64,000 nt of DNA from Candidatus Poribacteria bacterium (GTDB lineage Bacteria; Poribacteria; WGA-4E; WGA-3G), in the NCBI GenBank assembly GCA_963663765.2, contig CAXXUA010000004.1:608001-672000 (forward strand), read 5' to 3'. The notes under the pieces are model-generated. The model was not told the DNA's origin. It ran no database searches and saw only the letters and a list, made by a program, of their open reading frames with translations. Position 1 is the first letter of the stretch; every line of letters starts with the position of its first letter. This document shows, piece after piece, positions 13,558 through 45,445 of the stretch. The translations under genes and the position numbers were made by a program.

Positions 13558-13597
13558 AAATATATCGCGATTCGGAAATCGCTCCTACAAAGAAATC

Positions 13598-24612: not shown

Positions 24613-24990
24613 GTGCATTATAAACCTAATATATGCAAAAACTTTGAAAACAATGGGTTAACTGGCACAAGTCGTGATTCTAGGTAATCTTATCCAAACC
24701 TACTACCATATCAATAGTTTAAAGTTTTAGCATTCCTAAATTATACTACTTGATGGTATTGAAAGCAATAGAATTTATTAAGAAAAACGACTTGTACCAG
24801 TTAACAATATGTTTTGTTTGTTTTCACATATTTTCGCATTAGTGCTATAAACAGATCGTCCCTAATGAAGATTAATTTATTAATTCGGTAATAAATATTC
24901 CTACACGGTAGGCGGGGAATGTCTAAATGGCATTCATCCTGTTGATTTCTTGATTTACTGGTCGCGACTGTTTTGATACATGGTCTCCAT

Positions 24991-25720
24991 ACGGTCGCGA
25001 CCGGGAGGTCGCTCCTACCCACGCAGGATACGGTCGCGACCGGGAGGTCGCTCCTACCCACGCAGGATACGGTCGTGACCGGGAGGTCGCTCCTACCCAC
25101 GCAGGGTACGGTCGCGACCGGGAGGTCGCTCCTACCCACGCAGGATACGGTCGCGACCGGGAGGTCGCTCCTACCCACGCAGGATACGGTCGCGACCGGG
25201 AGGTCGCTCCTACCCACGCAGGGTACGGTCGCGACCGGGAGGTCGCTCCTACCCACGCAGGGTACGGTCGTGACCAAGTGGTCGCTCCTACCCACGCAGG
25301 GTACGGTCGTGACCAAGTGGTCGCTCCTACCCACGCAGGGTACGGTCGCGACCGGGAGGTCGCTCCTACCCACGCAGGGTACGGTCGCGACCGGGAGGTC
25401 GCTCCTACCCACGCAGGGTACGGTCGCGACCGGGAGGTCGCTCCTACCCACGCAAGGTACGGTCGCGACCGGGAGGTCGCTCCTACCCACGCAGGGTACG
25501 GTCGCGACCGGGAGGTCGCTCCTACCCACGCAGGGTACGGTCGCGACCGGGAGGTCGCTCCTACCCACGCAGGATACGGTCGCGACCGGGAGGTCGCTCC
25601 TACACACGCAGGATACGGTCGTGACCGGGAGGTCGCTCCTACCCACGCAGGGTACGGTCGTGACCAAGTGGTCGCTCCTACCCACGCAGGGAACGGTCGC
25701 GACCGGGAGGTCGCTCCTAC
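24991..25720. repeat. Head-to-tail REP array, 19 units of 39 bp
   Basis: Unit ACGGTCGCGACCGGGAGGTCGCTCCTACCCACGCAGG(A/G)T; reverse complement begins GTAGGAGCGACCTCCCGGTCGCGA, also a single copy at 59277. Confidence 0.95.
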
Positions 25721-26463
25721 CTATGCAAGTGTGTAATTAATTCCATAATTTACCATAAATGAAGATTAGTTTATTAAATAGGTGATCATATAGTTCTCAC
25801 TCAGTAGGTGGGGAATGCCATACGCGCAGTCTTACCGATGATTTCTTGATTTGGTGCTTTGTATGCGCGCAGGTATGTCAAATCCCAATGGATATCTATT
25901 GGTGATCTATTGGAAATCCCAATAAACAGACTCCCAAAAAACTACAAAAACCATAAAAATCATATATAATATATACAAAAGAAAAGCACACAACAAAAAC
26001 ACTATGCAAAACTAACACCCAAACACAAAAAATATACAAACAAAAAACCGTACCAAAAAATGAAATTAATTTCTCTAAAAAACACAACAAAACCCCAATA
26101 AAGCCTTATAGATACTGGACGCACAACGACTTAACAAAACCGTACCGCAAACCGAGAAAACCGTACCTTTTGGTACGGTTTTGATAGTAGTAAATTATTA
26201 TGAATTCTCAAGAAAAACACAAACAATTGGCAGTGATTCCTCATAGAAAAAATAATAAAACAAGAAGCAACGACACCATATTAAAAAGCAGATATACAAG
26301 AAACTCACAAAAACCATTACGTTTTCGAAAAAACATGCTTTCAGGACTTACTACGACTAATTTAAAAGCCAATTTGCAAAACATCCACAGTATGTTATTT
26401 CATACCACGCGGTCTGTTTTGCACAATTCGGACTAACGACAAATTGAATGTAAAATTCTATTC

Positions 26464-26589
26464 TATAGAAGACTTTAGAATTAATTGGACATTATGTTCG
26501 GTTATGAAACCGAACATATCAAGGGTGTTGTAGCAACTTGAGTTAAAATTAGTTGAATTAGTTGAAATATCAGCAGTGACGATTCTATA
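26464..26589. mobile_element. Degenerate MITE family 3 copy with GTTCGG...CCGAAC REP-like hairpin
   Basis: First ~37 nt nearly identical to the copy at 32842. Confidence 0.6.
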
Positions 26590-26600
26590 ATGTTTTTTTC

Positions 26601-26629
26601 TTGCATTTATTAATAAAAAATGCTATAAT
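26601..26629 (+). promoter_or_regulatory. Putative sigma70 promoter
   Basis: TTGCAT-17 nt-TATAAT with TG extension. Confidence 0.55.
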
Positions 26630-26919
26630 TTTTTAGAATTTGTTAATTTGACCCAAAAATAAACGTATTATAATCGTAACAAAGGATAATTTAATTAATA
26701 AGTTGGCAATATCGGTATTATTTTACTGTGTTCAGTTGCCCTTTATTGTTTGGTTTATGTCAAATTCTGTAGTATAAATAAAAAGATCTATTTCGGTATA
26801 GCTAGCAAATCGAAGTAGAATTTAGATATATATATAACATTAGTATGATATTTTGGTAAGCGCGCTTTTTGCCAAGATACCATAAGAATGAGATAGATTG
26901 AAAAGGAGAATTCATAGCT

Positions 26920-27642
26920 ATGAAAAGAACAGCAATTTTATTAGTAATAATTGCTTTTATTGCCATCGCACCTTCAGCCTTTGCACAAGAGTGGCAACCT
27001 GCTGGTGATACGTGGATAGAAAAATGGTGGGGTCTTGATTTAGTTCGTAACACAGGTGCGCATACTGATGCTGCTGCACGCGACTTTCTTGATGAAGGCA
27101 CAGGTGGTGAAATTAATAATTATAGTGCTTCCACACGTTATGGTGCTGGTTTAACTGGACAAATCACGATCAACCTTCCTGACAATGGCGGTGCTCTTGG
27201 ATGGTCTGTGATCACTCTTGAAACAGACAGTGATCGGAACATTTCAAGGAGCCACGGTTTTACTGATGAGGGCAGTGTTGCCTGGCACGGGATTATTCTT
27301 GTGTTGTCTCCAGATGACAGGACGACGACAATTTATCCCACACACGATGACAATGCTCAAATCTGGCTAAACGGAGAACAAGTTTATACTAACCCAGCAT
27401 GGACAGGTGGTGTATATAATTCCCCTTCACCCGCAGAAGTTGAACTTATCAAGGGTGAAAACTTTCTACACTACAAGGTAAGTGAAGGCGGCGGCGGAGA
27501 TTATGTGAATCTTCGTTTTGATGAAGCTGATACTGACCTTAGGATTGCTCCAACCGTTGATGAACGTTTTCTTGATGTGCTGACTCCAGTTGAACCGAAA
27601 GGTAAACTGACAACTATGTGGGCAGACATCAAACGTAAGTAA
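26920..27642 (+). CDS. Secreted beta-sandwich protein with C-terminal VEP.GKL.T.W..IK tail
   Basis: Signal peptide ending AFA; HDDNAQIWLNGEQV (PA14/galactose-binding-like); AGGAG RBS. Confidence 0.85.
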   Translation: MKRTAILLVIIAFIAIAPSAFAQEWQPAGDTWIEKWWGLDLVRNTGAHTDAAARDFLDEGTGGEINNYSASTRYGAGLTGQITINLPDNGGALGWSVITLETDSDRNISRSHGFTDEGSVAWHGIILVLSPDDRTTTIYPTHDDNAQIWLNGEQVYTNPAWTGGVYNSPSPAEVELIKGENFLHYKVSEGGGGDYVNLRFDEADTDLRIAPTVDERFLDVLTPVEPKGKLTTMWADIKRK

Positions 27643-27661
27643 TTCACAAAAAAGTGATCAC

Positions 27662-27706
27662 AAAGCAAGAATCCGTTTCCTTTTGGGATGCGGATTTTTG
27701 CTTTTT
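27662..27706 (+). terminator. Rho-independent terminator
   Basis: AAAGCAAGAATCCGTTTCC-tttt-GGGATGCGGATTTTTGCTTTTT. Confidence 0.75.
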
Positions 27707-27964
27707 AAATAAAGGATAGCAAATCAGTGTATTATGGTCCTGTAAACAAACTAAGCATCAAGAACGTTGGAAGTGATTGATTGTAAGAAACATTACATGA
27801 ATTTAAAATACATATATACTTTCATTGATTGACGTTTTGCTTGGAAATATTCAATCAAATAATTGTATACTATAACTTGGACAGTTTTTTCCAAACATGA
27901 GTTGATCAGAAATTGATTCACCGCTTATGTTACCAAATCAAAACACAACGAACAATACAGAATC

Positions 27965-28125
27965 CTTCTTTACTCCAGCGGAACAATGTGTTTATAGCCA
28001 CATTTTTCAACCGAAAACTCTGTTCCAGCGGAGCAGTATGTAAGTTCCAACACATAGCACTCCGCTGGATTACAAGTATGTTAGAATACCGTTTTCTATA
28101 ATATAGCACTCCTCTGGAGTACAGT
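27965..28125. repeat. Degenerate cluster of CTCCAGCGGAG-type palindromic repeats
   Basis: TACTCCAGCGGAACAATGTGTTTATAG, TGTTCCAGCGGAGCAGTATG, and inverted ATAGCACTCCGCTGGA / ATAGCACTCCTCTGGAG. Confidence 0.6.
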
Positions 28126-28413
28126 ATTTTCTCCGGTTTCACGAATATGCGAAACTCGTAGAAAAATAGAAACACCTTTGAAAACCGACTTGCAACAATC
28201 GGAATGTGTCCAAACTATAGTAAATATAAAAACAATATAAGTTGTTGCCTACAAGATTTTAAGCAGATAGTTACTGGTTATTACTAATAAAACAACGTTT
28301 TTGCATCTATTTTAATTATTTTTATTCTAAATCGTGGTTAGAAACCCCTCCTACAAGAGTAATCCGAATTAGGTAGCAGCTTGAGTTAATATTATCTTCA
28401 TAATTATCTATAT

Positions 28414-30738
28414 ATGTTAACGCGTATAATATTAATGTTAGAAAAGGAGTCTTCATTGTTGAAAAGTTTTTTCTATCTTCTAATGGTTTTACTAATACCG
28501 GTAGTCGCGTTTTCTCAAACGGGAGATATTGAAGGTACAGTTCTTAGCAGAAACACAAATGAACCATTAGTAGGTGCAGAGATTCACATCATTGATATTG
28601 ACATACGCGTAACGACTGATGATAAAGGTATGTTTGTGATAAATGAAATTCCACCTGGGAGCTATACCACGACTATTACGTTACCCAATTCAGAGATAAT
28701 AGAAAAAACTATATTGATAGTAACAGCAGACGAAATCCTGAAACCACAGATTCTCATTAGTACCGTTGATTTTGAACTTGATAGTATAAAGGTAACCACA
28801 AAACGTGAACCTAAGACTATTGTAAAAAAGACCATACAGTCCAAAGAAATCACAAGGTTACCAGGAACTGCAGGGGATGTTCTTCGTGCGCTTCCAGTGA
28901 TACCAGGGATTGGTGTTGCAAATGATTTTAGTGGTGCTCTCTATATTCGTGGCGGGTCTGATGAAGATAATTTATACTATTTTGACCGTGTTCCTGTTGG
29001 CTATCCTTACCACTTTGGTGGTCTTGTTTCATCAATCAGTTCTGAAATTATAGATCGTATTGATGTCTATGCTGGCGGGTATGGTGCAGAATTTGGAGTG
29101 GATTCTCAAGCGGTGATAGACATATATTCGAAGGACAGCAGTCAAGATAATTTGCGTGGGAAATTCAACCTTAATCTGCTTTACTCAGAGGGTTTGTTTC
29201 AAGGGAAAATTGGAGAAAAAGGATATTGGTATGCTGCAGGACGTAGGAGTTACATTGACCTTTTCGTTGGTTCTCTTTCTTTTGAAACAGGTGCAATCAC
29301 TGCATTTCCCCGTTTTTGGGATTATCAATTAAAGACTGGGTATGATTTTAATGAGAAACATCAACTCTATATCAATTTTTTTGCGTCAGGCGATAAGTTT
29401 GCTGTGCAATTAGATGGCGAAAATGTAGATGAGGACTTCAGGGGAAGTACGAGTTTTGAAAGTGGTTTTGAGGGTGCAGGTATACATCTACGTTCAACAT
29501 TGACCGAACGTCTTACATCTTATTTGTCGCTTACACGTTCAAACTTTCTATTTGATGTCAACTTTGGACCATTAATTTCTCTTATTATTGATGCACCTAC
29601 TTACACTCTTAGGGAAGATCTTACTTATGAAATTAATGAGAAGCATCGTTTGGAAACTGGTTTGATTCTCGGTCTGGAACCCGGTGAGGTAAGTGGTAGT
29701 TTCACACGAATACCCGATGAGGGTGAAGTAGATTTTGATATCCGTTTTGAAACGAAGTATGAAATTGATGAAACTGTGCGTGGGCAACGGATTGAAGCAT
29801 ATATACAAGATAGGTATAAATTGCTACCCTATTTATCAGCAGTAATAGGGCTTCGGGTTGACTATTTTAGCGAAATTGATGAACTATCAATACAACCTCG
29901 TGGCAGCATACGTTTGGAACTCCCCAACAGTTCAGAACTACAATTTGCTTACGGTATTTACAATCAATCACCGATACCTGGACAACTTTCTCCGAGTGTT
30001 GGAAATCCAGAGTTGAAATCCAGCCAAGCGAGTCATTACATACTTGAACTTAAACGGCAGCTTTCCGCTGACACAGAAATAAAAATGGCTGCATATTACA
30101 AAGACTTGGTTAACCTTGTTACATCTGACGACACTTATGTCTACCTTAATCAAGGTGAAGGTTATGCACAAGGCACTGAAATTTTTCTAAGGCATCAAAG
30201 CAGTGAAAAGTTTTTGAGTTGGATTTCTTACGCATATACACTTTCAAAACGGCGTGATCGTATTGATGAGCCCTACCGATTCTATTCGTTTGATCAGACG
30301 CATGTTGCCACCTTAGCTGCGAGTTTTAAACCTACATCTACATGGGAAATTGGAGCGAAATGGCAATATCGAACAGGTAATCCCTATACTCCTGTCATTG
30401 ATGCCGATCCCCTACCAGATCCAAGATATATTGAAGAAATTGGGGGTTTACAGAATCTAAAGTACGAAAGTTCATCCGATATACTTGCTAACATCATCTA
30501 CATTCCAGTCTATGGTGATACAAACTCTGGAAGATTACCTGCCTACCACAGATTGGATATTCGTCTGAGCAAAACCTTCCGTTTTAGTAGTTGGGAATTA
30601 GGTCTCTTCTTGGAACTTCTAAATGTGTATAACCGGAAAAATTTACTTGATTATCAATATAATGAAGATTATTCTGAGACAACCCCAATAAACCAACTTC
30701 CTTTTATTCCATACTTAGGAATTACTGCTGAATTCTAA
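28414..30738 (+). CDS. TonB-dependent receptor with N-terminal carboxypeptidase-regulatory-like domain
   Basis: Signal peptide, EPLVGAEI, plug GDVLRAL...PG...LYIRGG, IDVYAGGYGAEFG, C-terminal GITAEF. Confidence 0.92.
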   Translation: MLTRIILMLEKESSLLKSFFYLLMVLLIPVVAFSQTGDIEGTVLSRNTNEPLVGAEIHIIDIDIRVTTDDKGMFVINEIPPGSYTTTITLPNSEIIEKTILIVTADEILKPQILISTVDFELDSIKVTTKREPKTIVKKTIQSKEITRLPGTAGDVLRALPVIPGIGVANDFSGALYIRGGSDEDNLYYFDRVPVGYPYHFGGLVSSISSEIIDRIDVYAGGYGAEFGVDSQAVIDIYSKDSSQDNLRGKFNLNLLYSEGLFQGKIGEKGYWYAAGRRSYIDLFVGSLSFETGAITAFPRFWDYQLKTGYDFNEKHQLYINFFASGDKFAVQLDGENVDEDFRGSTSFESGFEGAGIHLRSTLTERLTSYLSLTRSNFLFDVNFGPLISLIIDAPTYTLREDLTYEINEKHRLETGLILGLEPGEVSGSFTRIPDEGEVDFDIRFETKYEIDETVRGQRIEAYIQDRYKLLPYLSAVIGLRVDYFSEIDELSIQPRGSIRLELPNSSELQFAYGIYNQSPIPGQLSPSVGNPELKSSQASHYILELKRQLSADTEIKMAAYYKDLVNLVTSDDTYVYLNQGEGYAQGTEIFLRHQSSEKFLSWISYAYTLSKRRDRIDEPYRFYSFDQTHVATLAASFKPTSTWEIGAKWQYRTGNPYTPVIDADPLPDPRYIEEIGGLQNLKYESSSDILANIIYIPVYGDTNSGRLPAYHRLDIRLSKTFRFSSWELGLFLELLNVYNRKNLLDYQYNEDYSETTPINQLPFIPYLGITAEF

Positions 30739-32838
30739 ATGGATTTTCCATATAATAAACCTCTTCAGTCGGTAACCGTTCTTATTATTTTCAATATTAT
30801 TTTGTTTTCTGCATTCGGACAGATTGATGAAACTAATGTGGAAGAACAAAAAGGTAATGTTGTGATATTGCCACCCGTTGAAGTAATATTAGAACGAATT
30901 GAAAAGAAACCGAAACATACTTTTGGAAATCAATTAATTACCCGTTCCGTTGGGAGTGGTGGCGACCCTATACGAGTTTTGAACCTGCTACCCAGTGTAG
31001 GTGTATTGAATGATTTCGTTGGAATCCTCTCCATACGTGGTGGTGGACCAGAAGACAATCTCTATTATTTTGATCGATTACCTTTGGGTTATCCGTATCA
31101 TCTACTTGGTATTGTTTCAACTGTGAATGCAGAAGTCATAGAGACTATAGATGTATATCCTGGTGGCTACGGTGCAGAATATGGTTCAGATGCCCAGGCA
31201 GTGATTGACATAAACTCCAGAAGAATCACAGACTCCTACTTCGGTGGAAAACTAAACCTAAATCCGGTGTATTCTCAAGCATTTCTTGAAGGTAATTTGG
31301 GACAACGCGGGTATTGGTATGTTTTTGGTCGCAGGAGTTATATGAGGACTCTTTTTGAGCTTTTACCCAAATTACTTGATATTGATGATGACTTGGTTAC
31401 ACAAGTTCCAAGTTTTTGGAGTTATCAAGGTAAGTTCGTATATCAATTAACAGAAAATCATAGAGCGGTTTTCAATACAATCGCCGCAGATGACTCAGCA
31501 GAATTTAGATTCACCTCTAACGAAGTCTCAGAAAGTGATTTGCAAGGTCCTTTGCAAACGGAGAATCCTTTTGATTCACAAGGTATCCATCTCTATTCTG
31601 AAAAAGAGGAGACATTTAAGTCTATACTTTCTTTGACTCGTTCTTTTTCTGGAACACAACTTGATTTTGGTGAAGGTTATTTCTTTAAGAGTACTGATAC
31701 AGTCACATCGTTACGTGGTGACCTTCAATACTGGGTAAAATTTCCTAAGACTTTGTTAGAAACTGGTTTTGATTTCTCAAGTACTCCCACAAATGTTATA
31801 AGTATCGGTGCGCGACCGCTTGATGAAGGTGATTGGGACTATGATTTTAGGATAAAAATGGATGGAGAAAAAGTACTGACTAACACAACAAATAATTTAC
31901 ATCGTCTGGAAGGATATGCTCAAGTAACACATGATCTTTTTGCATCCCCCTTTGTTGATCTGTATGCTACGTTTGGCTTGCGTTCAAGCTACTTTAATTT
32001 GATAGATAGTTTGTCGCTACAACCCCGCGGCCTAATAGGTATGACACTGGGACCAAGTGAAACAGTTGGTTATAGTCAATCACTTTTTCCCTTGGATCTA
32101 CGCTTTATGTATGGCAAGTATGTTCAGAATCCTCAACTTTATCAAGTGTCACTTGGTAATGTCAATCCTGAAATAAAACCAAGTTCAGCAAAGCACTATG
32201 TAGTTGCAATAGAAAAAAGACTCACTGCCGAGACAAAAATAGAAGTTGCAGGCTATTATAAAAACCTTGAAGATATGATAGCGTATAATTTACTTGAGAA
32301 ACGGTATGAGAATGGGAGAATTGGTTCAGTGAAAGGGATAGAAGCATCATTAGAGCACAAAATTGGTGATGTCTTTCAGGGATGGTTTGCTTATGCTTAT
32401 ACCGTTTCTAAACGACAGGATTCCAGCAAGGATGAGGAACGAGAATTTATGTATAGCACGCCACATGTCTTGACAGTAAACCTAAATTATATGTTTGGGA
32501 CATTGGAAATTGGAGCAAACTGGCAATATAAAAGTGGGACATTATATGCACCTTTAGATGATAGACAACGTTATACTAATCCATTTACCAAAAGACAAAC
32601 ATGGATTCCGGTTTACGGGGATCCCCTAAGAACTTCATCATATCATCGTTTAGATTTACGTTTTCACTGGTCGTTCCTACCATTTGAAAGATGGAAAGGG
32701 GGATTAACGTTTGAGCTTTGGAACGCATATAACCGTGGTAATCCGCTTCAAGTACGTTACAACTCAGATTTTTCAAAAGAGGTGCCGATTTATCAACTTC
32801 CTATTGTACCATTCCTTGCGATAACATTAGAATTCTGA
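30739..32838 (+). CDS. TonB-dependent receptor (paralogue of the upstream gene)
   Basis: GDPIRVL.LLP...SIRGGGPEDNLYYFD, IDVYPGGYGAEYG, C-terminal AITLEF. Confidence 0.92.
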   Translation: MDFPYNKPLQSVTVLIIFNIILFSAFGQIDETNVEEQKGNVVILPPVEVILERIEKKPKHTFGNQLITRSVGSGGDPIRVLNLLPSVGVLNDFVGILSIRGGGPEDNLYYFDRLPLGYPYHLLGIVSTVNAEVIETIDVYPGGYGAEYGSDAQAVIDINSRRITDSYFGGKLNLNPVYSQAFLEGNLGQRGYWYVFGRRSYMRTLFELLPKLLDIDDDLVTQVPSFWSYQGKFVYQLTENHRAVFNTIAADDSAEFRFTSNEVSESDLQGPLQTENPFDSQGIHLYSEKEETFKSILSLTRSFSGTQLDFGEGYFFKSTDTVTSLRGDLQYWVKFPKTLLETGFDFSSTPTNVISIGARPLDEGDWDYDFRIKMDGEKVLTNTTNNLHRLEGYAQVTHDLFASPFVDLYATFGLRSSYFNLIDSLSLQPRGLIGMTLGPSETVGYSQSLFPLDLRFMYGKYVQNPQLYQVSLGNVNPEIKPSSAKHYVVAIEKRLTAETKIEVAGYYKNLEDMIAYNLLEKRYENGRIGSVKGIEASLEHKIGDVFQGWFAYAYTVSKRQDSSKDEEREFMYSTPHVLTVNLNYMFGTLEIGANWQYKSGTLYAPLDDRQRYTNPFTKRQTWIPVYGDPLRTSSYHRLDLRFHWSFLPFERWKGGLTFELWNAYNRGNPLQVRYNSDFSKEVPIYQLPIVPFLAITLEF

Positions 32839-32841
32839 TTT

Positions 32842-33028
32842 TATAGTAGACTTTAGAATTAATTGGACATTATGTTCGGCAGAATACGCCAAATCAACGG
32901 TATAAATGCTATATAATATTCCCGTGTGGTATCCTGCATTGGTTTGGAAACCGAACCTAACGAGGGAGTTGTGGCACAACTAACAGTATGATGCTCAAAA
33001 TGTCCAATTAATTATCTGCTTTACTATA
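32842..33028. mobile_element. MITE family 3 (TATAGTA...TACTATA ends, IS630-like) carrying an interrupted REP
   Basis: Imperfect TIRs TATAGTAGACTTTAGAATTAATTGGACA / TGTCCAATTAATTATCTGCTTTACTATA. Confidence 0.7.
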
Positions 33029-33118
33029 TATTCCATTGAACTGTGTGTAACCGCTATATTCTCCTTTTACGTAATTATTATAACACACCCATTACCCGCA
33101 AAAAGGAGGTGTCCGCGT

Positions 33119-35350
33119 TTGGCAAACAATTTATTATTTTTTCTTCCGTTACGGAAAATACAATTCTTTCTTCTTATCTCTACACTGTTATATTTTTTCG
33201 TTTACGATGTCAGTTCAGACGAATCGGTCAATCAGATAAAAGCTCATCACACTTCAGAAAACATTGTAATAGACGGTCACCTATCAGAATTGGATTGGCA
33301 GAAAGCAGATGTCATTGACAAGTTTGTCCAAATTGAACCGCATGAAGGTGCATACATGTCAGAACCGATGGAGTTGCGTATTCTATATGACAACGATTAT
33401 ATCTATTTTGGGTTTATCTGCTATGATTCTGATATTTCAAGGCTTGTTGCGAACGAAATGCGGCGTGACGCATGGAGTATTCATGAGAATGACAATGTAT
33501 TTGTTTTGTTAGATACCTATAATGATAAACGAAGTGGGTTTTTCTTTAGGATTAACGCGTTGGGGGCAATTCAGGATAGAGCTGTAACAGACAATGGAGA
33601 TACATTTAATGATGATTGGGATATTGTCATAACAGGTAAGTCCAAAATTAACGAGGAATCTTGGACGGTAGAATTAAGGGTTCCTTTTCATCAACTTCGG
33701 TTCAAACAAAGTGATCCAATGATATGGGGAATCAATGCGGGTCGTGAAATTGCGCGTAAACAGGAAGAAGCCGTTTGGATACCAGTTCCTGCTTCTTATG
33801 GTGGTAGAGCAAAGTATCGGACAGCAAACCTTGGTAAGTTGGTGGGTTTAGAGGGAATTAAACCGTCAAGACCTATAGAGATTCTACCCTATATGCTACC
33901 GGGAATAACATATACCAATGAAGAGGATACATCTTTAGCAGCAACCCGTCAATTCAAACTTGGTTTTGATGCAAAATATGGCATCACAACGAATGTGACT
34001 TCTGACATAACGTTTAATACCGATTTTGCGCAAGTTGAGGCTGATGAGGAACAGGTGAACTTAACCAGATTTGGTCTATTTTTTCCAGAAAAGCGCCCTT
34101 TCTTTTTAGAAGGTGTTGGACACTTCAATTTTGGTGTTCAACGTAGGGGTTTTGGTGAAGCACCACCGGCAATATTGTTTTATAGTCGTCGAATTGGCTT
34201 TGCAGAAGGGAACCCGATCCCAATTCTTTTTGGCGGTAAAGTCAGTGGTAAAGTAGGAACTTACGGAATTGGTATTTTGAATGTCCTGACTGATAAATTC
34301 TCTGGATTCACAGATGAGGATGAACCAATTGAAATTCCTCTGACTAATTTTTCTGTTTTACGGGTTACAAAAGATATTATAGCCGGTTCGCGTATTGGAA
34401 TAATACTTGTAAATAAAGACCAAAGGTCAAATTACAACCGTGCTGGCGGTTTTGATTTTCAATACCGTCCCAATAATTATCTTGATATCAGAGGTATGTG
34501 GGCACGTAGTTTATTTCCGGATATGTCTGGCATGAACAATGCATGGCATTTAAGTTCCCGTTTTAGAAGTGATAATTTCCGCATAAACGGTTCATTCACA
34601 AATATTGATGATGAATTTAATCCTGAAGCTGGTTATGTACAGCAACCTGATATACGACACTTTTCAGGAGATATCCGTTGGGCACCGCGTCCAAATAAAT
34701 ACGGGATTAGAGAAATATCGTCTGGACCAAGAGGTGAATATATACTGAATACGAACAATGAACTTGAGAAGTGGTCTATATCTTATAGACATTGGACTTC
34801 ATTTGCGACTTCAGATAACTTTTCCTTTTACGGTAGGAGAACGTTTGAACGTCTTTTTAAATACTTTGAATTACGCGATGGTGTGATTATACCAACTGGT
34901 GACTATTATACAAATATGTTTGGTGCAAACTTATCTATGAATGAAAGTCGAACTCTACATGGATGGACTGGTGTTGATTTTGGTGAATTTTATAGAGGCC
35001 ATCTACGTTCTTTTTTTATTGGATGTGGGTTGAAACCAAATGGTCAGTTGAGTTTACATGCGATTTATAGGTTTAACCGTATCACTTTTCCGTTAATAGA
35101 ATTTGATGCGAATCTATTTTCAGGTAGGTTAACTTACTCATTTTCGACAGATCTTTATGCCAAACTATTTACACAATGGAATGCTGAAGAAAACACTGTA
35201 TCTATTAATATCCTCGTCAATTATATTTATCGTCCTGGAAGTGATTTTTACTTTGTATTCAATCAAACTTACGATACAGATAAGACAACACAGACAGTAT
35301 TAAAGAATTCTACTGTGGTTGGTAAAATGACTTTTTGGTGGAATCCTTAG
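33119..35350 (+). CDS. CBM9-like sugar-binding domain + DUF5916 outer-membrane barrel protein
   Basis: IDGHLSE.DW, LDTYND, WTVELRVPF, NTDFAQVEAD, LFFPEKRPFFLEG, FYSRRIG. Confidence 0.85.
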   Translation: MANNLLFFLPLRKIQFFLLISTLLYFFVYDVSSDESVNQIKAHHTSENIVIDGHLSELDWQKADVIDKFVQIEPHEGAYMSEPMELRILYDNDYIYFGFICYDSDISRLVANEMRRDAWSIHENDNVFVLLDTYNDKRSGFFFRINALGAIQDRAVTDNGDTFNDDWDIVITGKSKINEESWTVELRVPFHQLRFKQSDPMIWGINAGREIARKQEEAVWIPVPASYGGRAKYRTANLGKLVGLEGIKPSRPIEILPYMLPGITYTNEEDTSLAATRQFKLGFDAKYGITTNVTSDITFNTDFAQVEADEEQVNLTRFGLFFPEKRPFFLEGVGHFNFGVQRRGFGEAPPAILFYSRRIGFAEGNPIPILFGGKVSGKVGTYGIGILNVLTDKFSGFTDEDEPIEIPLTNFSVLRVTKDIIAGSRIGIILVNKDQRSNYNRAGGFDFQYRPNNYLDIRGMWARSLFPDMSGMNNAWHLSSRFRSDNFRINGSFTNIDDEFNPEAGYVQQPDIRHFSGDIRWAPRPNKYGIREISSGPRGEYILNTNNELEKWSISYRHWTSFATSDNFSFYGRRTFERLFKYFELRDGVIIPTGDYYTNMFGANLSMNESRTLHGWTGVDFGEFYRGHLRSFFIGCGLKPNGQLSLHAIYRFNRITFPLIEFDANLFSGRLTYSFSTDLYAKLFTQWNAEENTVSINILVNYIYRPGSDFYFVFNQTYDTDKTTQTVLKNSTVVGKMTFWWNP

Positions 35351-35436
35351 CAACTCCAAAACATGACTCACCTAAATTTAGAACAGGACTTATGCAGTTT
35401 TCATGATTACATCAATTATTTTGACGAAAATTATGT

Positions 35437-35594
35437 CAGGACTTACGCAGTTTTCATGATCCAATCAAGAATTAAGACGAAAACGATGTAATTTTCAGCA
35501 TTTTTTAGGTTTCCGGCGCGCTTACAAAGCACCAAATCAACGGTATGAATGCCATTTAGGCATTCCCCGCCTACCGTTGGGTGCGTAAGTCCTG
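35437..35594. mobile_element. MITE family 1 copy, inserted in a truncated older copy starting at 35384
   Basis: Perfect TIRs CAGGACTTACGCA/TGCGTAAGTCCTG; 5-bp duplication TATGT (35432-35436, 35595-35599). Confidence 0.85.
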
Positions 35595-35825
35595 TATGTA
35601 ATACAAATTCTAAAAATAAGATACTATTGTCTGTGTGTACTTGTAGAAGCGATTCCCCGGTCACAACTGGGAAATATTAGATTGCCTAATTAATCAATAC
35701 CTTCGCCATTTTTGAGTGCTTCAGTTGAATGAGTATATAGTGTTGATCTACCATTGCTCTGTGATATTGTTAGGATTATATAAAAAAAATAACTTCAGGT
35801 TTTCGTTGAAGTTTTTTTATCATAG

Positions 35826-36219
35826 TAGGGTTATTTAGTTTTAAGAGTTTTCTGTTATTGAGATTTACTGAAAGTTAATACCCAGGTTTGGTTTCCTAAC
35901 CGAACTTTTTGCATCAGTTTTAGATTATTGAAAAATGAATATCGCTCTTTAGTCCCGACAAATGCCATACGCGCATTTGGCGTTGATTTGGTAGGGACGA
36001 TATGTTTATAGAAAACGAATACCCTCCCCAGTTCTTTAGTCCCGTAGGGACGATATGTTTATTTTTCTATGTCGTTCCTACGGAACTCAAGAGGGATAGA
36101 TAACATGTTTCTATAAACATATCGTCCCTACGGGACTAAAGAACTGGACAAGATGGCAACACATAAAATTAACGACATAGCAAAATATTATCAAAAATAT
36201 TGAAAACTGAATAACCCTG
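35826..36219. mobile_element. MITE family 2 (TIR CAGGGTTATTCAGTTTT) nested in family 4
   Basis: Ends TAGGGTTATTTAGTTTT / AAAACTGAATAACCCTG; 9-bp duplication TTATCATAG (35817-35825, 36220-36228); absent from the 44910 copy. Confidence 0.85.
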
Positions 36220-36284
36220 TTATCATAGCCTCTAATTTGACAATAGAAATGACTATATCAGCAATCTGACAGAATAATTTATAT

Positions 36285-36526
36285 GCACAATCTGGCAGAA
36301 TGTGCTACAACTACCCGCACAATCTGGAAGAATGTGCTACAACTACCCGCACAATCTGGAAGAATGTGCTACAACTACCCACACAATCTGGAAGAATGTG
36401 CTACAACTGCCCGCACAATCTGGCAAAATGTGCTACAACTGCCCGCACAATCTGGAAGAATGTGCTACAACTGCCCGCACAATCTGGAAGAATGTGCTAC
36501 AACTGCCCGCACAATCTGGAAGAATG
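36285..36526. repeat. 32-bp REP array, 7 full units plus a partial
   Basis: Unit GCACAATCTGGAAGAATGTGCTACAACT(A/G)CCC; reverse complement contains GTAGCACA...TGTGC. Confidence 0.92.
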
Positions 36527-36613
36527 CCTATTATTGGCGAAGGTATTGATTAATAAATTAAACTTCATATAACGTACCTACCGTTTAGTTTATAAGTTAA
36601 AATAAAAAACGAG

Positions 36614-36696
36614 TTGACATATACAAAAAAATCTGTTAGAATTTAATATTGACATATACATTTAATGTTGACATATAGATTGAACAGTGCTATAAT
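36614..36696 (+). promoter_or_regulatory. Tandem sigma70 promoters upstream of tonB, three TTGACATATA copies
   Basis: TTGACA-17-TAGAAT (36614-36642); TTGACA-16-TATAAT (36669-36696); third TTGACATATA at 36649. Confidence 0.65.
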
Positions 36697-36869
36697 TGTA
36701 ATAATTTCGGTAAGTTTTACAGGAATTAGTTACATTTTGTGTCATTGAATATTCTAGAAAACTACTATTTTACAGTTATTTTTATTCACGAACAATCTCA
36801 TAAATACTCCCTGTCAGTGTGTTGTAAGCGCGCTTTAGACATCACGAGATAATATCAAGGAGAAAAGAG

Positions 36870-37829
36870 ATGAGCCGAAGTTCCGATATCGTATACCAGA
36901 TGCAACATCGTCGTTCTGAGCGAAAAAAACCGAAAGTCAATGCAAAACTAAAACGAACTAACATAGACGACACTCTGAAAGGTGGAATCGCAGCTGCGAA
37001 TGAAAACAAACCACCTCCCATCACTATGCAGAAAACTGCTGGAAGAAATTCCTTTGCTTTATTCTTTTCAATCGGATTCCATGTAGTGCTTGCACTAATT
37101 TTTGGGTTTATTGTCATTAAGGATAGGATTACAACGATTGATGAAAATTTAGTTGTTGATATTGTACCACCTGAACCCATACATAGAGAACGGGGAACCG
37201 TCAATGTGCGTGAACGTCCAACATTTGATGCAAAAGATCAAGTTATTGAGGCACCAATTCAACAACCTATGGTCACCAATGCGAATTTACCACCAGCGAG
37301 AGATGGTTTTATTCTACCAACAGATACAAGCACAGATATTGGACCAATAGGACCTGCTTTAGGCGCTGGACCAAGGATAGGTGAGATTAGTCGAGGAATA
37401 GTTGGTCCTATTCAACCTACAACCCCGACGGCGGTTAGTCCAACAATTGTGAGACCTACACAAAAAGGTGGTCCGATAGCTGATCTCTCGACGGATCTTG
37501 AGGTTGCAGAAAATTCAAGTTTAGAAACGCCAGATATTGATCTTTCACAACCTGGTTCTTCAAATCCCAAAGCTAAATATGTTCCGAAACCCTCATATCC
37601 GAAGAATGCCAGACGCGCACAGAAGGAAGGCACTGTAAAATTGCGTGCAACGATTGGTACAAATGGAATACCGAAAAATATTGTTAAATTAACCAATCTT
37701 GGATTCGGTTTTGAGGAAGCAGCAATAGCAGCGTGGAAAAAAAGTAAGTATATTCCCGCACAGAAAAATGGAAAAGATGTAGAGGTAACGGTAACAATCA
37801 AGTTTGAATTTAAACTTGATGATTACTAA
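36870..37829 (+). CDS. tonB: TonB family energy transducer
   Basis: TM helix with S...H (SIGFHVVL), Pro-rich linker, PSYPKNARRAQKEGTV, C-terminal IKFEFKL. Confidence 0.88.
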   Translation: MSRSSDIVYQMQHRRSERKKPKVNAKLKRTNIDDTLKGGIAAANENKPPPITMQKTAGRNSFALFFSIGFHVVLALIFGFIVIKDRITTIDENLVVDIVPPEPIHRERGTVNVRERPTFDAKDQVIEAPIQQPMVTNANLPPARDGFILPTDTSTDIGPIGPALGAGPRIGEISRGIVGPIQPTTPTAVSPTIVRPTQKGGPIADLSTDLEVAENSSLETPDIDLSQPGSSNPKAKYVPKPSYPKNARRAQKEGTVKLRATIGTNGIPKNIVKLTNLGFGFEEAAIAAWKKSKYIPAQKNGKDVEVTVTIKFEFKLDDY

Positions 37830-37880
37830 ATTATCTGCCAAAATTATCTGAAAGAAAGGTATAAAGTCTACCTTATATTG

Positions 37881-38684
37881 TTAACGAATTTTCAGCAATC
37901 CTTTTGCTGCAAAACTACGTACTAAGTTGACGACTGATTGTTGAGCGGTTTTACCTAAGCGTCTTTGTTCAATAGGCAGTTTCTCACATTCTGCTTCAAC
38001 CATTTCAGCTTTTTCGGTAGACATACATTGATAAAACCTATCCTGAATTGCAGCTGGAGCATTGTGCAGTGCGAGTGCTATAGTATTTACCTCTAAGACT
38101 TGCATCAAGGTTAGAATTACTTCATCAGGTACTTCTGCAAGGTCTTCAAAAGCAAACAGACCATCGGCAACCGTGTTAGCTAAATCCGGTTGCCTTTTTT
38201 CTAATGCTTCCATAAGTTTGTTCTGTCGTTCAGTATCAATTTTTGTAAGAAATTTCGCAAGGTTTTTGGGTCCATTGCCAAAGAATAAAGTGCTTTTGAA
38301 TAAATCATTCATTTTAGCGAGAATATCTTCCCAAATCTGTTGAGCTTGAGTAGTATCAACCATCTCCGTTTCTGCTAAATGTTCTGCAATTAGAATCTGC
38401 CTCTGATAGGAAAACTTTGCGAAAATTTGCTGTGCATATCCAGTGAGTGTTTCTTCTGTATTCTCATTTGATATTTCGTCCTCACCCCGTTCCAGTGTTC
38501 TCCGTATCTCATCCGAACTGTCTAGGTTGCTTTTAGTAGCTGCAACATCAAGCAATAATAAGAAGAGCGCAATATCCCCCTCATCTATATCATCAAACAC
38601 CTTCATTATTACTGGTAAAGGTGTTTTTTCAAACACATCCATCAATTGCTGAACTGTGGTATCATTTAGAAATGATTCTGACAC
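37881..38684 (-). CDS. FliG C-terminal-domain-like protein
   Basis: LFAFEDL...D..I...........IALAL..A...IQDRF...MS...A.M........AQQSVVNLVR....KG.L matches the FliG_C pattern. Confidence 0.75.
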   Translation of the reverse strand: MSESFLNDTTVQQLMDVFEKTPLPVIMKVFDDIDEGDIALFLLLLDVAATKSNLDSSDEIRRTLERGEDEISNENTEETLTGYAQQIFAKFSYQRQILIAEHLAETEMVDTTQAQQIWEDILAKMNDLFKSTLFFGNGPKNLAKFLTKIDTERQNKLMEALEKRQPDLANTVADGLFAFEDLAEVPDEVILTLMQVLEVNTIALALHNAPAAIQDRFYQCMSTEKAEMVEAECEKLPIEQRRLGKTAQQSVVNLVRSFAAKGLLKIR

Positions 38685-39712
38685 AATTTAACCCCTTTTT
38701 CTCCGCATTCTATTTCACCTATAATGAAAGCCGTTTCTTCTAATACGTTTAAAGAATCTATTGCAGCAGAAATGTCTTCAGGTTTAAGTATCAGAACAAT
38801 TCCAACCCCCATATTAAAGACTTTGTACATCTCAGTTTCTTCAACGTTGCCTTCACTTTGAAGTAGTTTGAAAATTGGTGGTACATCCCAATTCTGTGTA
38901 TAAATTCTTGCGCAACAACCGTCAGGTAGGATTCTTACAATATTCCCAGGCAACCCTCCACCAGTTATGTGTGCTATGCCTTTTATTTCATAATACTTGC
39001 GCAGGTTCAAGATAGATTTCACATAACTTTTATGGTTTCTTAGTAGTTCATTTCCAACAGTTGTAGAAAGTTCAGGTACATAAGTATCAATATCATACAT
39101 ACAACGATCAAAAAGAATTTTTCGTGCCAGAGAATATCCATTAGTATGCAGCCCTGTAGATGCTAATCCAACTAACACATCTCCGGGTTTAATGTCACGA
39201 CCAGCAATGAGTGCATCTTTTTCAACAACACCGATGATAGTTCCGACCAAATCGTATTCGTTTTGTTTGTATAAACCAGGGAGTTCTGCTGTTTCCCCAC
39301 CAATTAAAGCACATCCAATCTCCTTACAACCTTTAGTTAGACCTACCATAATTTGTTCAACAACAGCAGGATCCATTTTCCCTATACCGATATAATCCAA
39401 AAAGAAAAGCGGTTCAGCCCCTTGTACGACGATGTCATTTCCACAATGTGTTACAATATCATATCCGACTGTATCGTGTTTATTTGCTTTAAATGCAACC
39501 ATTAGCTTTGTGCCGACACTATCAGTGCTTGACACGAGCACTGGTTTCTCATATTTACCCAGAGCGAACAATCCACCAAAACTACCTAAGTCACTAACAA
39601 CTTCAGGACGGTAAGTAGATTTCACAAGGTCTCTTATGCGGTGCATAGCCTTGCTTTCTTCTTCAAATGAGACACCTGCATGCGCATAAGTCAAGGGTAT
39701 CTTGTCAGCCAT
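38666..39712 (-). CDS. purM: Phosphoribosylformylglycinamidine cyclo-ligase
   Basis: TYAHAGV, GSFGGLF, STDSVGTK, GAEPLFFLDY, GGETAELPG, GLHTNGYS, HITGGG, FNMGVG. Confidence 0.98.
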   Translation of the reverse strand: MADKIPLTYAHAGVSFEEESKAMHRIRDLVKSTYRPEVVSDLGSFGGLFALGKYEKPVLVSSTDSVGTKLMVAFKANKHDTVGYDIVTHCGNDIVVQGAEPLFFLDYIGIGKMDPAVVEQIMVGLTKGCKEIGCALIGGETAELPGLYKQNEYDLVGTIIGVVEKDALIAGRDIKPGDVLVGLASTGLHTNGYSLARKILFDRCMYDIDTYVPELSTTVGNELLRNHKSYVKSILNLRKYYEIKGIAHITGGGLPGNIVRILPDGCCARIYTQNWDVPPIFKLLQSEGNVEETEMYKVFNMGVGIVLILKPEDISAAIDSLNVLEETAFIIGEIECGEKGVKLCQNHF

Positions 39713-40143
39713 CATCTATTATTCCTATTGTTAGGATGATTAGGAGCAAAAGTGTGTGAATTTTGTCTATTTGATGCTGATGTTTCTCGTTTTGTTCTGT
39801 TTCGGAGTATGACACCTTTCAGTAAACTAACTACAAGAAACAGTAATGTAATTGCAATTGCGCCAATCATGCCATAATATTGTGCGTCATCTTTTTGCAT
39901 TTCAGGTTGTATCATTTGGATGACGATTGGGAGTAACCACGCCAATACCATACCCATAATTGAATACATGAGTATGAGTTTTAACGTTGAGACACCTTGT
40001 TTGGTTCCGAGTTGATTTTTCACAATTTTTCCAAATCCAGGTCTTGCGATCTTTTCTCTTCTTAGTCTTCTTTGTTCTCTAATTTCTCTATTTTTCCACT
40101 CTTGTAGTTTATCGGGTTGCTGCGTTGGTGGTATAAAATCCAT
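39712..40143 (-). CDS. Hypothetical membrane protein (2 TM)
   Basis: Two hydrophobic segments; AAGGA RBS; coupled to purM. Confidence 0.75.
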   Translation of the reverse strand: MDFIPPTQQPDKLQEWKNREIREQRRLRREKIARPGFGKIVKNQLGTKQGVSTLKLILMYSIMGMVLAWLLPIVIQMIQPEMQKDDAQYYGMIGAIAITLLFLVVSLLKGVILRNRTKRETSASNRQNSHTFAPNHPNNRNNR

Positions 40144-40246
40144 TGTTTATTCCTTATTGATTTTAGGAACAGTTCAATTTCCTACATAAGTATATTTCTT
40201 CATTACTGATGTTGACTTGTAGCGTAAACTTCTTTCTACTTAAAGG

Positions 40247-40412
40247 GAGGAGTTACGCAGTTTTCTTGATTTAATCAAAAATTATGATGTAAATGATGTA
40301 ATTATCAGCATTTTTATGGGTTTCCAGCGCGCTTACAAAGCACTAAATCAAGAAATCAACGGTATGAATGCCAGTTAGGAATTCACCGTCTACCGTTTTT
40401 GCGTAAGTCCTG
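40247..40412. mobile_element. MITE family 1 copy (degenerate left end)
   Basis: GAGGAGTTACGCA...TGCGTAAGTCCTG; 5-bp duplication AAAGG (40242-40246, 40413-40417). Confidence 0.8.
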
Positions 40413-40432
40413 AAAGGAATTAAAGGAATTTA

Positions 40433-41836: not shown

Positions 41837-41948
41837 TCGTTAGTGTTTCCTTTGGTAAAGGATTGGGTAAGTAAAATAAATTAACATTACACACTTAGGG
41901 AAATATCTTTAAGGAAATGAAGACTTCTGAAGTTATGCTAGGGATTTA

Positions 41949-42497
41949 TTATGTTTCTTGCACTTGAACTTCAGGATCTTCAATACTTGTTAACCTATAT
42001 CCTATTATAGCTCCGATAGGAATTGCTAATACATACAGTAATACAAGCGGTATACCGAGAATAGACCAAATACGGACAGGCAAAGACAACAGAAATGATA
42101 TTTTCTCTATCAAAGGAAGAATGATTTTTAGAAGAACGTTTGCGGGTAACTCTATATCCGACCAAGGAATATTTAGTAGTGCGACCAGTCCGACGATCGT
42201 AGGTGCTCCCAAAAATGCACCCGAACATACTGGTTTGAAAGGTATCTGATGCTTAAATTTTTGCCCAACAAACTGAATTCCTTTTGTCACACCGACTATT
42301 AAAATCCCATAAGAACAAGTAATTGAAATTAACAACAACAGACCAACCCAAAAACCGTGTGAAATCCTTTCATTAATTAGCAGTTGCCATAAGAATTTGT
42401 TAAATATAAGGAAATACACCAATCCTGCAGCAACAGCAATGACCACTCCCACAGCGATCTGAACAAGTGTCATTAGGACACTATTTCCTCGCGACAT
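41949..42497 (-). CDS. Hypothetical membrane protein
   Basis: Several hydrophobic helices; AGGAG RBS; minus-strand TTGACA-17-TATACT promoter at 42532-42560. Confidence 0.8.
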   Translation of the reverse strand: MSRGNSVLMTLVQIAVGVVIAVAAGLVYFLIFNKFLWQLLINERISHGFWVGLLLLISITCSYGILIVGVTKGIQFVGQKFKHQIPFKPVCSGAFLGAPTIVGLVALLNIPWSDIELPANVLLKIILPLIEKISFLLSLPVRIWSILGIPLVLLYVLAIPIGAIIGYRLTSIEDPEVQVQET

Positions 42498-42663
42498 TTC
42501 AACTCCTGTTAAACAAAATTCGTCTGTTTTAAGTATATCATGATGTCATATAATTGTCAAGATTTTAATATTGTTGATCAGGATTATTCAGTTTTAAGAA
42601 TTCTTTGTTGATGAATTTTACTTAATGTATACATCGTAGGTCGGGTAGAACGTGAGCGAAACC

Positions 42664-44909: not shown

Positions 44910-45445
44910 CAATACCTTCGCCATCTTTGAGTGCTTCAGTTGAATGAGTATATAGTGTTGATCTACCATTGCTCTGTGATATTGTTAGGATTACATAAAT
45001 AAAAATAACTTCAGGTTTTCGTTGAAGTATTTTTAATTATCATAGCGTCTAATTTGACGATAGAATCTGACAGAATAATTTATATGCACAATCTGGAAGA
45101 ATGTGCTACAACTACACGCACAATCTGGAAGAATGTGCTACAACTACACGCACAATCTGGAAGAATGTGCTACAACTACACGCACAATCTGGAAGAATGT
45201 GCTACAACTACACGCACAATCTGGAAGAATGTGCTACAACTACACGCACAATCTGGAAGAATGTGCTACAACTACACGCACAATCTGGAAGAATGTGCTA
45301 CAACTACACGCACAATCTGGAAGAATGTGCTACAACTACACGCACAATCTGGAAGAATGTGCTACAACTACACGCACAATCTGGAAGAATGTGCTACAAC
45401 TACACGCACAATCTGACAGAATGTCTATTATTGGCGAAGGTATTG
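44910..45445. mobile_element. MITE family 4 copy with 10 full 32-bp REP units (45086-45423)
   Basis: TIRs CAATACCTTCGCCA/TGGCGAAGGTATTG; 6-bp duplication ATATAT (44904-44909, 45446-45451). Confidence 0.9.

Follow-up and report, generated by a model that had tools for sequence, protein, structure and literature searches.

A family of very small hairpin elements, akin to small dispersed repeats, in the extragenic palindromes of Poribacteria

Introduction

Can a DNA unit of about 35 nt be inserted, as such, into the repetitive extragenic palindromes (REPs) of a bacterial genome, or does it only travel with them? The question is raised by a 64-kb stretch of the genome of a Candidatus Poribacteria bacterium (GenBank assembly GCA_963663765.2, contig CAXXUA010000004.1, positions 608,001 to 672,000; hereafter the window). 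An earlier note on this DNA, made from the letters alone, pointed out six copies of a 34–44-nt micro-element at a fixed position inside REPs and took it for an exceptionally small non-autonomous mobile unit that parasitises them. The present analysis confirms the observation and partly supports the interpretation. The copies belong to a real and abundant family of micro-elements, new for Poribacteria and similar to the small dispersed repeat (SDR) elements of cyanobacteria. On balance, we favour the reading that these are very small non-coding insertional DNA elements, whose units an activity of the lineage pastes into CpG sites and whose numbers then grow as the REPs that bear them are amplified; we regard this as probable, with real reservations set out below.

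Structure and abundance of the family

The genome of the window comprises 6.35 Mb in 15 contigs (97.8% complete). The bare head of the element, AAATCAACG, occurs 792 times in it, and a 22-mer of head and arm gives 518 matches with at most three mismatches. Exact genome-wide counts of three 10–16-mers are 428 for CCAAATCAACG (about 3 expected from composition), 493 for AATCAACGGTATGAAT (about 0) and 532 for GGCATTCCCC (about 5), which excludes chance.

Each unit consists of an unpaired conserved 10-nt head, (C)CAAATCAACG, one hairpin (stem 7–8 bp, loop 4–7 nt) and a short C-rich tail, 34–36 nt in all. Its two ends differ, with (C)CAAATCAACG at one and ..CATTCCC(C) or ..CATTTGT at the other, and the A hairpin has GTAT at its foot. 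The same head is followed by at least four hairpin bodies: A (GTATGAAT.., about 480 copies), B (CCAAATGCG, 126), B' (CCGAATGCG, 12) and D (TCAGAAGCG or CCAGAAGCG, 16). In B, B' and D the stem measures 8 bp and the loop, which is GCGTATG-like, 7 nt. The single consensus proposed at first was right about the asymmetric ends, the hairpin and the lack of terminal inverted repeats (TIRs) and duplication, but it fuses two body types that have nothing except the head in common.

The stems covary. Across bodies, conservation is limited to the head and to the capacity to fold into a hairpin; the hairpin itself is a required part of the unit. Compensated stems are found between bodies (CCAAATGC/GCATTTGG, CCGAATGC/GCATTCGG and CCAGAAGC/GCTTCTGG) and within A, where GAATGCT/AGCATTC occurs 30 times, GAATACC/GGTATTC 27 times and each one-sided variant 5–11 times, in a loose scan whose counts include some unrelated hairpins. 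Other species add further compensated A stems, e.g. GAACGCC/GGCGTTC; loci fetched by an exact 20-mer are left out of the covariation, since the 20-mer fixes the 5' arm. Stem changes that give G:T on the top strand (127) are about as frequent as those on the bottom strand (110), so neither strand is marked as the folded one.

A grammar-based parse of the genome yields 452 A-type elements. In order, these contain the head (xxAAATCA), 0–5 octamers (AGAAATCA), ACG and 1–5 hairpin modules (G-GTATGAATGCC-loop-GGCATTCCCC); elements with 0, 1, 2, 3, 4 and 5 octamers number 248, 154, 31, 15, 3 and 1, respectively. Several hairpin modules are present in 90 of the 204 elements with at least one octamer, and 244 of the 248 without octamers have a single hairpin. 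Head-less hairpin modules occur only directly behind the tail of another member. Composite forms are built with additional AGAAATCA octamers, with as many as five hairpin modules or with nested copies. Those with an octamer and two hairpins are found in at least seven host classes and therefore appear to be copied as whole units.

Two copies (C4:107366 and C4:1165445) are palindromised: their 3' arm runs on as the full reverse complement of the head (..GGCATTCATACCGTTGATTTGG), giving perfect foldbacks of 45–65 nt. A long master element bounded by head and tail was considered and rejected, as no gene is enclosed. No recognisable tail follows within 160 nt in 115 of 702 heads; among these, the heads that belong to the family stand in copies that are palindromised, nested or decayed, or have an AT-rich module behind them.

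Insertion into CpG sites

Insertion is directly visible in empty sites. Each A-type element was removed in 42 boundary registers and the exact 20-nt joint was sought elsewhere. Such a joint exists for 267 of the 452 elements, and two equivalent registers dominate (209 and 214). In one register the insert is CCAAATCA..CATTCCC and precedes CG, in the other it is CAAATCA..CATTCCCC and precedes G. Its point of insertion, N^CG, could equally be NC^G because of a 1-nt C ambiguity. This rule, and not a fixed position inside REPs as first thought, is what the sites have in common. The element junctions examined contain neither target duplications nor inverted ends.

Filled and empty sites coexist genome-wide in large numbers. 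Site 1 of the H1 REP (AAAGC[AG]^CGCCT) is filled 225 times and empty 1166 times, and site 2 of the same REP (GCG^CGCTTAC) 55 and 371 times. The loop of type B units (AATGCG^CGTATGG) is filled in 63 cases and empty in 113; for REP-H2 (CCCTA^CGGGAC) the counts are 127 and 608. The genome-wide search and tabulation of junctions that had been proposed as a check thus bear the observation out, from the 792 heads to these four sites. At least nine host classes are occupied, plus 48 other contexts, in keeping with the earlier argument that different target families imply independent events. Most sites are GTAG-type REPs, loops of family members or positions directly behind another copy, and many are loops or centres of CCC..GGG-type palindromes. 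Of 175 distinct pairs of 8+8-nt flanks, 133 have C directly before AAATCA and 138 have G directly after the tail; with the dominant host set aside, these pairs contain no conserved left tetranucleotide. Once a unit is in place, the foot of its hairpin offers a CG that can pair with the CG of the target.

Paralogous and orthologous sites give the same picture. A non-coding TIR element of about 850 bp, with 14-nt TIRs (CAATACCTTCGCCA / TGGCGAAGGTATTG), lies at 35695-36548 (+ strand) in the window and carries REP-H2 sites. Seven of its paralogues can be aligned across the relevant part: in the first REP, four have the 34-nt B unit and three lack exactly these 34 nt. In the second REP, the B unit is present in two paralogues. 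One further paralogue has a single B unit that bridges both sites, as recombination between filled sites would leave. One orthologous position, some 25 nt upstream of a small conserved gene, has the unit in three other genomes; in the present one it is empty. Together with the 267 empty joints and a copy number that ranges from 1 to 466 within the genus (see below), this precise presence and absence upholds the description of the element as a very small, non-autonomous insertional unit that parasitises REPs.

The TIR element has features of its own. It contains 32-nt tandem repeats (GTGCTACAACT...) in variable number. The element also occurs at 44910-45445 of the window, and at least seven further copies, with 88–94% identity, lie elsewhere in the genome. 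In the closest relative, G016, the two flanking genes are adjacent, without the entire 1.2-kb repeat-filled spacer. A small conserved gene (MxLDWKPRHRDMIIG...YIYP*PQDKMFLEEH...), at C8:71840-72080, contains an in-frame TGA, with TGA also at that codon in L056 and L141. The frame was read in these two and in the window's genome; the gene also occurs in L146. The gene is a candidate for selenocysteine incorporation or read-through.

Copies and empty sites in the window

All six copies lie where they had been placed; three are intact and three decayed, and a fuzzy scan of the whole window reveals no seventh. The canonical A-type copy (36 nt) is at 35532-35567 (+), with the head CCAAATCAACG, the hairpin GTATGAATGCC-ATTTA-GGCATTC and a CC tail. 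Its host is an H1 REP, with ..TTACAAAGCA on one side and CGCCTAC on the other, and exact empty joints (TTACAAAGCA^CGCCTACC..) are many elsewhere in the genome. Folded as DNA, it reaches -7.2 kcal/mol (z -3.3); the flanking G is taken up in the closing CGG/CCG pairs. The copy at 40343-40386 (+), an A-type with one extra AGAAATCA octamer (44 nt), occupies the same H1 REP junction. It opens with CT instead of CC, has the tail GGAATTCAC and folds at -6.1 kcal/mol (z -3.3). At 35958-35991 (- strand), a 34-nt B-type copy combines the A-type head with another hairpin, CCAAATGC-GCGTATG-GCATTTGT; its host is a REP-H2 (CGTCCCTA^CGGGACT), itself within the TIR element.

The decayed copies are all A-type, and none of the three folds better than shuffles. 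The one at 32889-32923 (+; z -0.9) has as its host another small hairpin (GCAGAATACG^(C)GTGTGGTATCCTGC, 32879-32937), in whose loop it lies. The copy at 24915-24958 (-; z -0.7) has one octamer; an array of 39-nt H5 REP units adjoins its head side and the H1-typical CGCCTACCGT its tail side, so that its flanks are chimeric. The copy at 25811-25854 (-; z +1.1) has one octamer, its loop reads GCGTATG, and its host is a variant of the H1 REP (GCGCGCATACAAAGCA / CACCTAC). That the copies lie inside REPs is accordingly true of most, but not of the 32889 copy, whose host is not a GTAG REP, and the 24915 copy takes its flanks from two REP families. The three copies at one junction (35532, 40343 and 25811) were suspected to share a single ancestral insertion; this fits the near-invariant orientation described below and a copy number that is probably REP-borne.

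As the earlier note had it, filled and empty sites stand side by side in the window. An array of 21 H1 REP units (GCGCGCTTACAAAGCA CGCCT..) at 42759-43712 (+), all empty, takes in the empty site at 43690-43712, and a solitary empty H1 REP lies at 7137-7160 (-; GTAGGCGCGCTTTGTAAGCGCGC on the + strand). Two of the 24 H1 REP cores in the window are filled; the third filled copy (25811) is in the variant H1 REP. An empty REP-H2 site, AGTCCCG^TAGGGACG, is found at 36038-36052 (+), 47 nt downstream of the filled one. Empty REP-H2 copies are recognised by AGTCCCGTAGGGA at 36038, 24541 and 24592, and a reverse copy lies at 36125.

Between the copies at 24915 and 25811, a tandem array at 24960-25720 holds about 19 units of a 39-nt REP (ACGGTCGCGACCGGGAGGTCGCTCCTACCCACGCAGGxT). 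A coding gene in this interval was considered and rejected: the open reading frames (ORFs) at 24801-25685 (-) and 24973-25740 (+) cross the REP array and are spurious. An AT-rich module (ATGAAGATTAATTTATTAATTCGGTAATAAATATT and variants) is present at 24866-24900 and 25749-25785 and is seen again elsewhere in the genome and in further Poribacteria. Its start often falls in an A-type hairpin loop, and a reversed REP half comes after it; the module may be another small nested element.

Distribution and genomic context

Distribution was followed with a 17-mer of the A-type (GTATGAAT-bodied) copies, for which a reversed-pattern control gives zero everywhere. The 17-mer is present in all 37 sampled genomes of the genus, at 1–466 copies, with the highest number in the genome of the window. 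In the sister genus it occurs in 27 of 57 genomes, mostly with 1–2 copies and at most 69; nine of the 57 have 10 or more copies and 30 have none. None of five genomes from the other three genera of the family contains it, and of 51 genomes from the remaining families of the phylum one has it, as a single match. When public genomes are scanned with an element 20-mer, at least 91 stretches match; 79 of the 80 records listed are titled as Poribacteria metagenome-assembled genomes (MAGs). A cyanobacterial origin, to which the 41% G+C and the heptamer-like repeats had pointed, was rejected on the strength of these records and because GCGATCGC is not enriched.

The heads are strongly intergenic, with 624 of 702 outside crude ORFs. 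In intergenic regions between co-directional genes, 191 heads point in the direction of the genes and 204 in the opposite direction, which makes a role in transcripts unlikely. In G048, a closed relative with no Y1 or RVT_1 match, seven A-type units are arranged head to tail at an exact spacing of 35 nt (G048:C1:1044373-1044599).

Candidate mobilising enzymes

The earlier note had looked to insertion sequences (ISs) of the IS110/IS1111 and IS200/IS605 groups for kinship. IS110-type transposases are not detected in the genome of the window with PF02371, for which the control is positive in 6 of 14 reference genomes (PF01548 was not searched). The Y1 genes of this genome are four IS605-like tnpA-tnpB copies and two genes resembling REP-associated tyrosine transposases (RAYTs). 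The IS605-like copies (C5:688634, C3:287718, C5:550867 and C5:353059) share a left end, ..TTAACACTATTCCGTCAAATCCCCATGC.., which (..CCGTCAAATCCCCATGC..) is unlike the element, and no head lies within those loci. A tnpB-like frame follows tnpA in this set, and one copy is interrupted after tnpA.

One RAYT-like gene lies in the window itself, at 13589-14071 (+; PF01797, E 4e-10), between arrays of GTAGGAGGGAACTCCGATTCCCGAC-type REPs. In the region 13098-15870, four such REPs stand forward upstream of the gene and 26 reverse downstream; with arrays on both sides, the locus looks like a REPtron. The second RAYT-like gene, at a contig end, is flanked by H1 REPs. In G017, which has 404 copies of the element, the only RAYT is 48% identical to that of the window and is flanked by a different GTAG REP.

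Across the genus, 36 of 40 genomes have a Y1_Tnp match. The other four carry 35–131 copies of the element, including the near-closed genomes G048 (1 contig, 131 copies) and G001 (4 contigs, 96 copies), and the RAYT protein of the window finds nothing in these four when used as a query. Among 35 Y1 loci from 31 genomes (about 3.3 kb each, up to about 1.5 kb either side of the gene), none has the element on both sides of the gene, and five hold a single head. A long element with the same two ends around a transposase gene, which it had been proposed to look for, is therefore not found among these Y1/RAYT loci, nor is any gene enclosed by head and tail. Y2_Tnp (PF04986) has no match in five genomes, and its control is likewise silent everywhere. 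The proposed kinship with IS110 or IS200/IS605 is not upheld: PF02371 gives no match, the IS605-like ends are unrelated, and four of 40 genomes bear the element with no Y1 gene detected. A Y1/RAYT transposase, an IS110 transposase and an RVT_1 reverse transcriptase are all improbable as the mover.

Independent movement and hitch-hiking

Several findings weigh against independent, enzyme-driven insertion as the source of the copies seen today. The family searches made identify no moving enzyme. Orientation relative to the host is nearly fixed, at 225 versus at most 4 in H1 REP site 1, 55:0 in site 2, 63:0 in the type B loop and 127:1 in REP-H2, even though CG is palindromic. Such near-invariance is expected if a few founder insertions were co-amplified with their REPs; many of the copies have probably spread as passengers of REPs, and independent insertions may number tens, not hundreds. 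No exact empty counterpart exists for 185 of the 452 A-type copies, and the left boundary shifts by 1–2 nt among host classes (CCAAATCA, GAAATCA-type, AATCA). Some flanks are chimeric, e.g. GGAGATCG / element / GCCTACAG compared with the empty GGAGATCGCTCCTAC, and likewise in the 24915 copy. Simple insertion does not explain such flanks, which point to recombination between repeats. Whole tandem arrays can be filled with one variant (e.g. C4:110137-111761). Public short contigs give joints that skip 36, 34 and 46 nt, with 22–28 nt on the shorter side; these may derive from paralogues, and they do not demonstrate a polymorphism at this locus. The public read data comprise four runs, all of short contigs, and stretches without cover are uninformative.

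Strand data add to the same side of the balance. Plus- and minus-strand copies are interspersed in two closed relatives, with no clean switch of orientation between replication arms. In 50-kb bins of the present genome, orientation is only weakly associated with GC skew (odds ratio 1.9), and this association is not independent evidence, since tandem copies were counted. After clusters are collapsed, no correlation with gene-strand bias is found (rho 0.10, p 0.49, 52 bins). The lack of an arm switch and the weak link to GC skew leave a lagging-strand, single-strand pathway unsupported.

One contig of run X7, about 97% identical to the window, spans 36549-42613 with the flanking genes and has 180 nt in place of the 441 nt at 40020-40460, the part of the window that holds an H1 REP and the 40343 copy.

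Other observations argue against hitch-hiking alone. Composite forms recur in at least seven host classes. In other species, the element sequence is kept in different, species-specific palindromes, and in low-copy genomes solitary copies stand in unique DNA and in diverse contexts. The sequence is retained between species whose coding DNA is about 75–83% identical, which argues against neutral relics. We take the whole to reflect true insertions in modest number, after which filled REPs were amplified and repeats recombined with one another.

Alternative explanations

In principle, a Y1 (HUH) tyrosine transposase, either a RAYT or one of the IS200/IS605 kind, could use the unit as a REP-like substrate. 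It would attach to the hairpin and cleave single-stranded DNA at two points, about 10 nt upstream of the hairpin and immediately downstream, and the foot CG would direct it to a CG target. We consider this unlikely, well as the architecture suits it (asymmetric ends, subterminal hairpin, no duplication, hairpin-rich targets and possible pairing of foot CG with target CG). The genome does hold two RAYT-like genes and four IS605-like copies, the GTAT before the A hairpin is one base off the REP tag GTAG, and one of the RAYT-like genes has the H1 REP, the chief host of the element, at its flanks. Against this stand the 35 Y1 loci, none flanked on both sides and five with a single head, the RAYT-like genes flanked by GTAG REPs of other sequence, the unrelated left end of the IS605-like copies, the four genomes of 40 in which 35–131 copies persist with neither a Y1_Tnp match nor a hit to the RAYT query, the absence of a conserved 4–5-nt target to the left and the lack of a clean strand bias on closed chromosomes. 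An RNA route of spread, with a small hairpin RNA as the intermediate that is reverse-transcribed, appears very improbable. No RVT_1 match is found in the near-closed genomes G001 (96 copies), G048 (131) and G017 (404), stem changes of the G:T and A:C type are about equal, orientation is unbiased toward neighbouring genes, and a tRNA is the sole match in an Rfam scan of the window, with no family matching the unit. The features that would suit such a route are the compensatory changes that conserve the hairpin, a 3' end that is well defined beside a more variable 5' junction, and the head-less hairpin units behind full copies.

A different doubt is whether the unit moves, or still moves, by itself. 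A few old insertions might have been spread by REP amplification, duplication and conversion or recombination, in which case the patterns of presence and absence would be conversion tracts or deletions. The near-invariant orientation, the arrays filled with one variant, the chimeric flanks, the TIR-element paralogue with a deletion between two filled sites, the few palindromised copies and the failure of the searches to turn up an enzyme all agree with this view. As an account of the whole family it is nevertheless doubtful, for one element sequence occupies at least nine unrelated host classes here and species-specific hosts in other genomes, nests in family members at one precise loop position (the 63 filled and 113 empty type B loops), stands alone in unique DNA of low-copy genomes and is kept across species at the coding identity given above. 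Repair and recombination among repeats clearly contribute, yet leave new hosts unexplained. Nor is selection for a function in cis, e.g. as a site for a DNA- or RNA-binding protein of the lineage, a convincing explanation of head and hairpin. Conservation between species and the strongly intergenic location would be expected of such a site; copy numbers from 1 to 466 within one genus, copies within other repeats instead of at fixed positions relative to genes, the decay of three of the six window copies and the nested and tandem arrangements make it quite improbable.

Proposed mechanism and significance

The reading that we prefer, insertion followed by REP-borne amplification, might work as follows. 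A trans-acting activity encoded by the lineage would recognise head and hairpin on single-stranded or extruded DNA and would paste the unit into CpG sites exposed in other hairpins, where the CG at the hairpin foot could pair with the target CG. Most present copies would then have arisen as filled REPs were amplified through REP mobility, tandem duplication and gene conversion. A bolder proposal is a novel pathway, in which a lineage enzyme outside the Y1, IS110 and RVT_1 families, or else ordinary hairpin-processing and repair enzymes, would paste the head with any hairpin into CpG; we put it forward only tentatively.

If such a pathway exists, these units would be among the smallest elements with their own recognition signals. 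To our knowledge, mobile DNA of about 35 nt without inverted ends, target duplication or a linked transposase has rarely been documented. The spread of copy number over many sequenced species makes the mechanism tractable: with 1–466 copies per genome in the genus, and carriers as well as non-carriers in the sister genus, comparative genomics could name the enzyme. The family also has a practical side, since the units and their host REPs break short-read assemblies and create spurious ORFs in the genomes of uncultivated sponge symbionts.

Comparison with known systems

IS200/IS605 elements have asymmetric ends and a subterminal hairpin, lack inverted ends and make no target duplication. The Poribacteria unit shares all of these traits. 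It differs in having one hairpin instead of distinct left and right hairpins, in the absence of a conserved 4–5-nt left target, in ends unlike those of the resident IS605-like copies and in showing no clean strand bias. A classical miniature inverted-repeat transposable element (MITE) is also a poor match, as the ends of the unit are not inverted repeats of each other and its junctions lack duplications.

REP/REPIN sequences are described as short extragenic palindromes in hundreds of copies, including a GTAG-tagged super-family (PMC3733652, PMC3116915); the conserved tetranucleotide at one end of the palindrome is given as GTAG or CGTC (PMC3733652). Like them, the unit is an extragenic, high-copy palindrome found in arrays and mosaics without target duplication, and REPs are thought to move as single-stranded hairpins. 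Unlike them, it has no terminal GTAG or CGTC tag, no RAYT is flanked by its copies, and it is present in Y1-less genomes; for the unit, REPs are the targets and not the element itself. ISs that insert into REPs are the subject of works cited in PMC3116915. REP-targeting ISs of the IS110/IS1111 type resemble the unit in using REPs as insertion targets, but they are kilobase elements that encode a transposase, and PF02371 finds no IS110-type transposase here. The unit is thus not a RAYT-type REP, not a derivative of IS200/IS605 or IS110 and not a classical MITE. A literature search of titles and abstract openings found no earlier description of REPs or of such units in Poribacteria.

The closest analogue, judging from how they are described, is provided by the SDR elements of cyanobacteria, which are the only close precedent known to us. 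SDRs were reportedly described in 2008 by Elhai et al. from Nostoc punctiforme and its relatives, as nested hairpin units of 21–27 nt with compensatory changes, and spread through an RNA intermediate is said to have been proposed for them. Both families consist of very short dispersed units built on a hairpin that is kept by compensatory changes, both are found in other repeats, in mini-transposons and in their own copies, and both are restricted to one coherent clade and have no known enzyme. They also share insertion at a precise point of a short GC-rich palindrome, here GCG^CGC or NCG^CG. For SDR5, the insertion is placed precisely between bases 3 and 4 of the palindrome GCGATCGC (PMC4390886), and the same source describes the mobilising enzyme of SDRs as unidentified as of 2015; no later report was found.

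The differences are as clear. The Poribacteria unit measures 34–36 nt, longer than the 21–27 nt reported for SDRs, and belongs to another phylum than the Nostoc clade. It has a conserved, unpaired 10-nt head that is common to several hairpin bodies. Its hosts are GTAG REPs with a CpG target, whereas SDRs reside in heptamer repeats or HIP1; HIP1 (GCGATCGC) is not enriched here (58 copies versus about 82 expected). If the analogy holds, similar behaviour in a second, unrelated lineage suggests that such units represent a general and overlooked way of building bacterial intergenic DNA.

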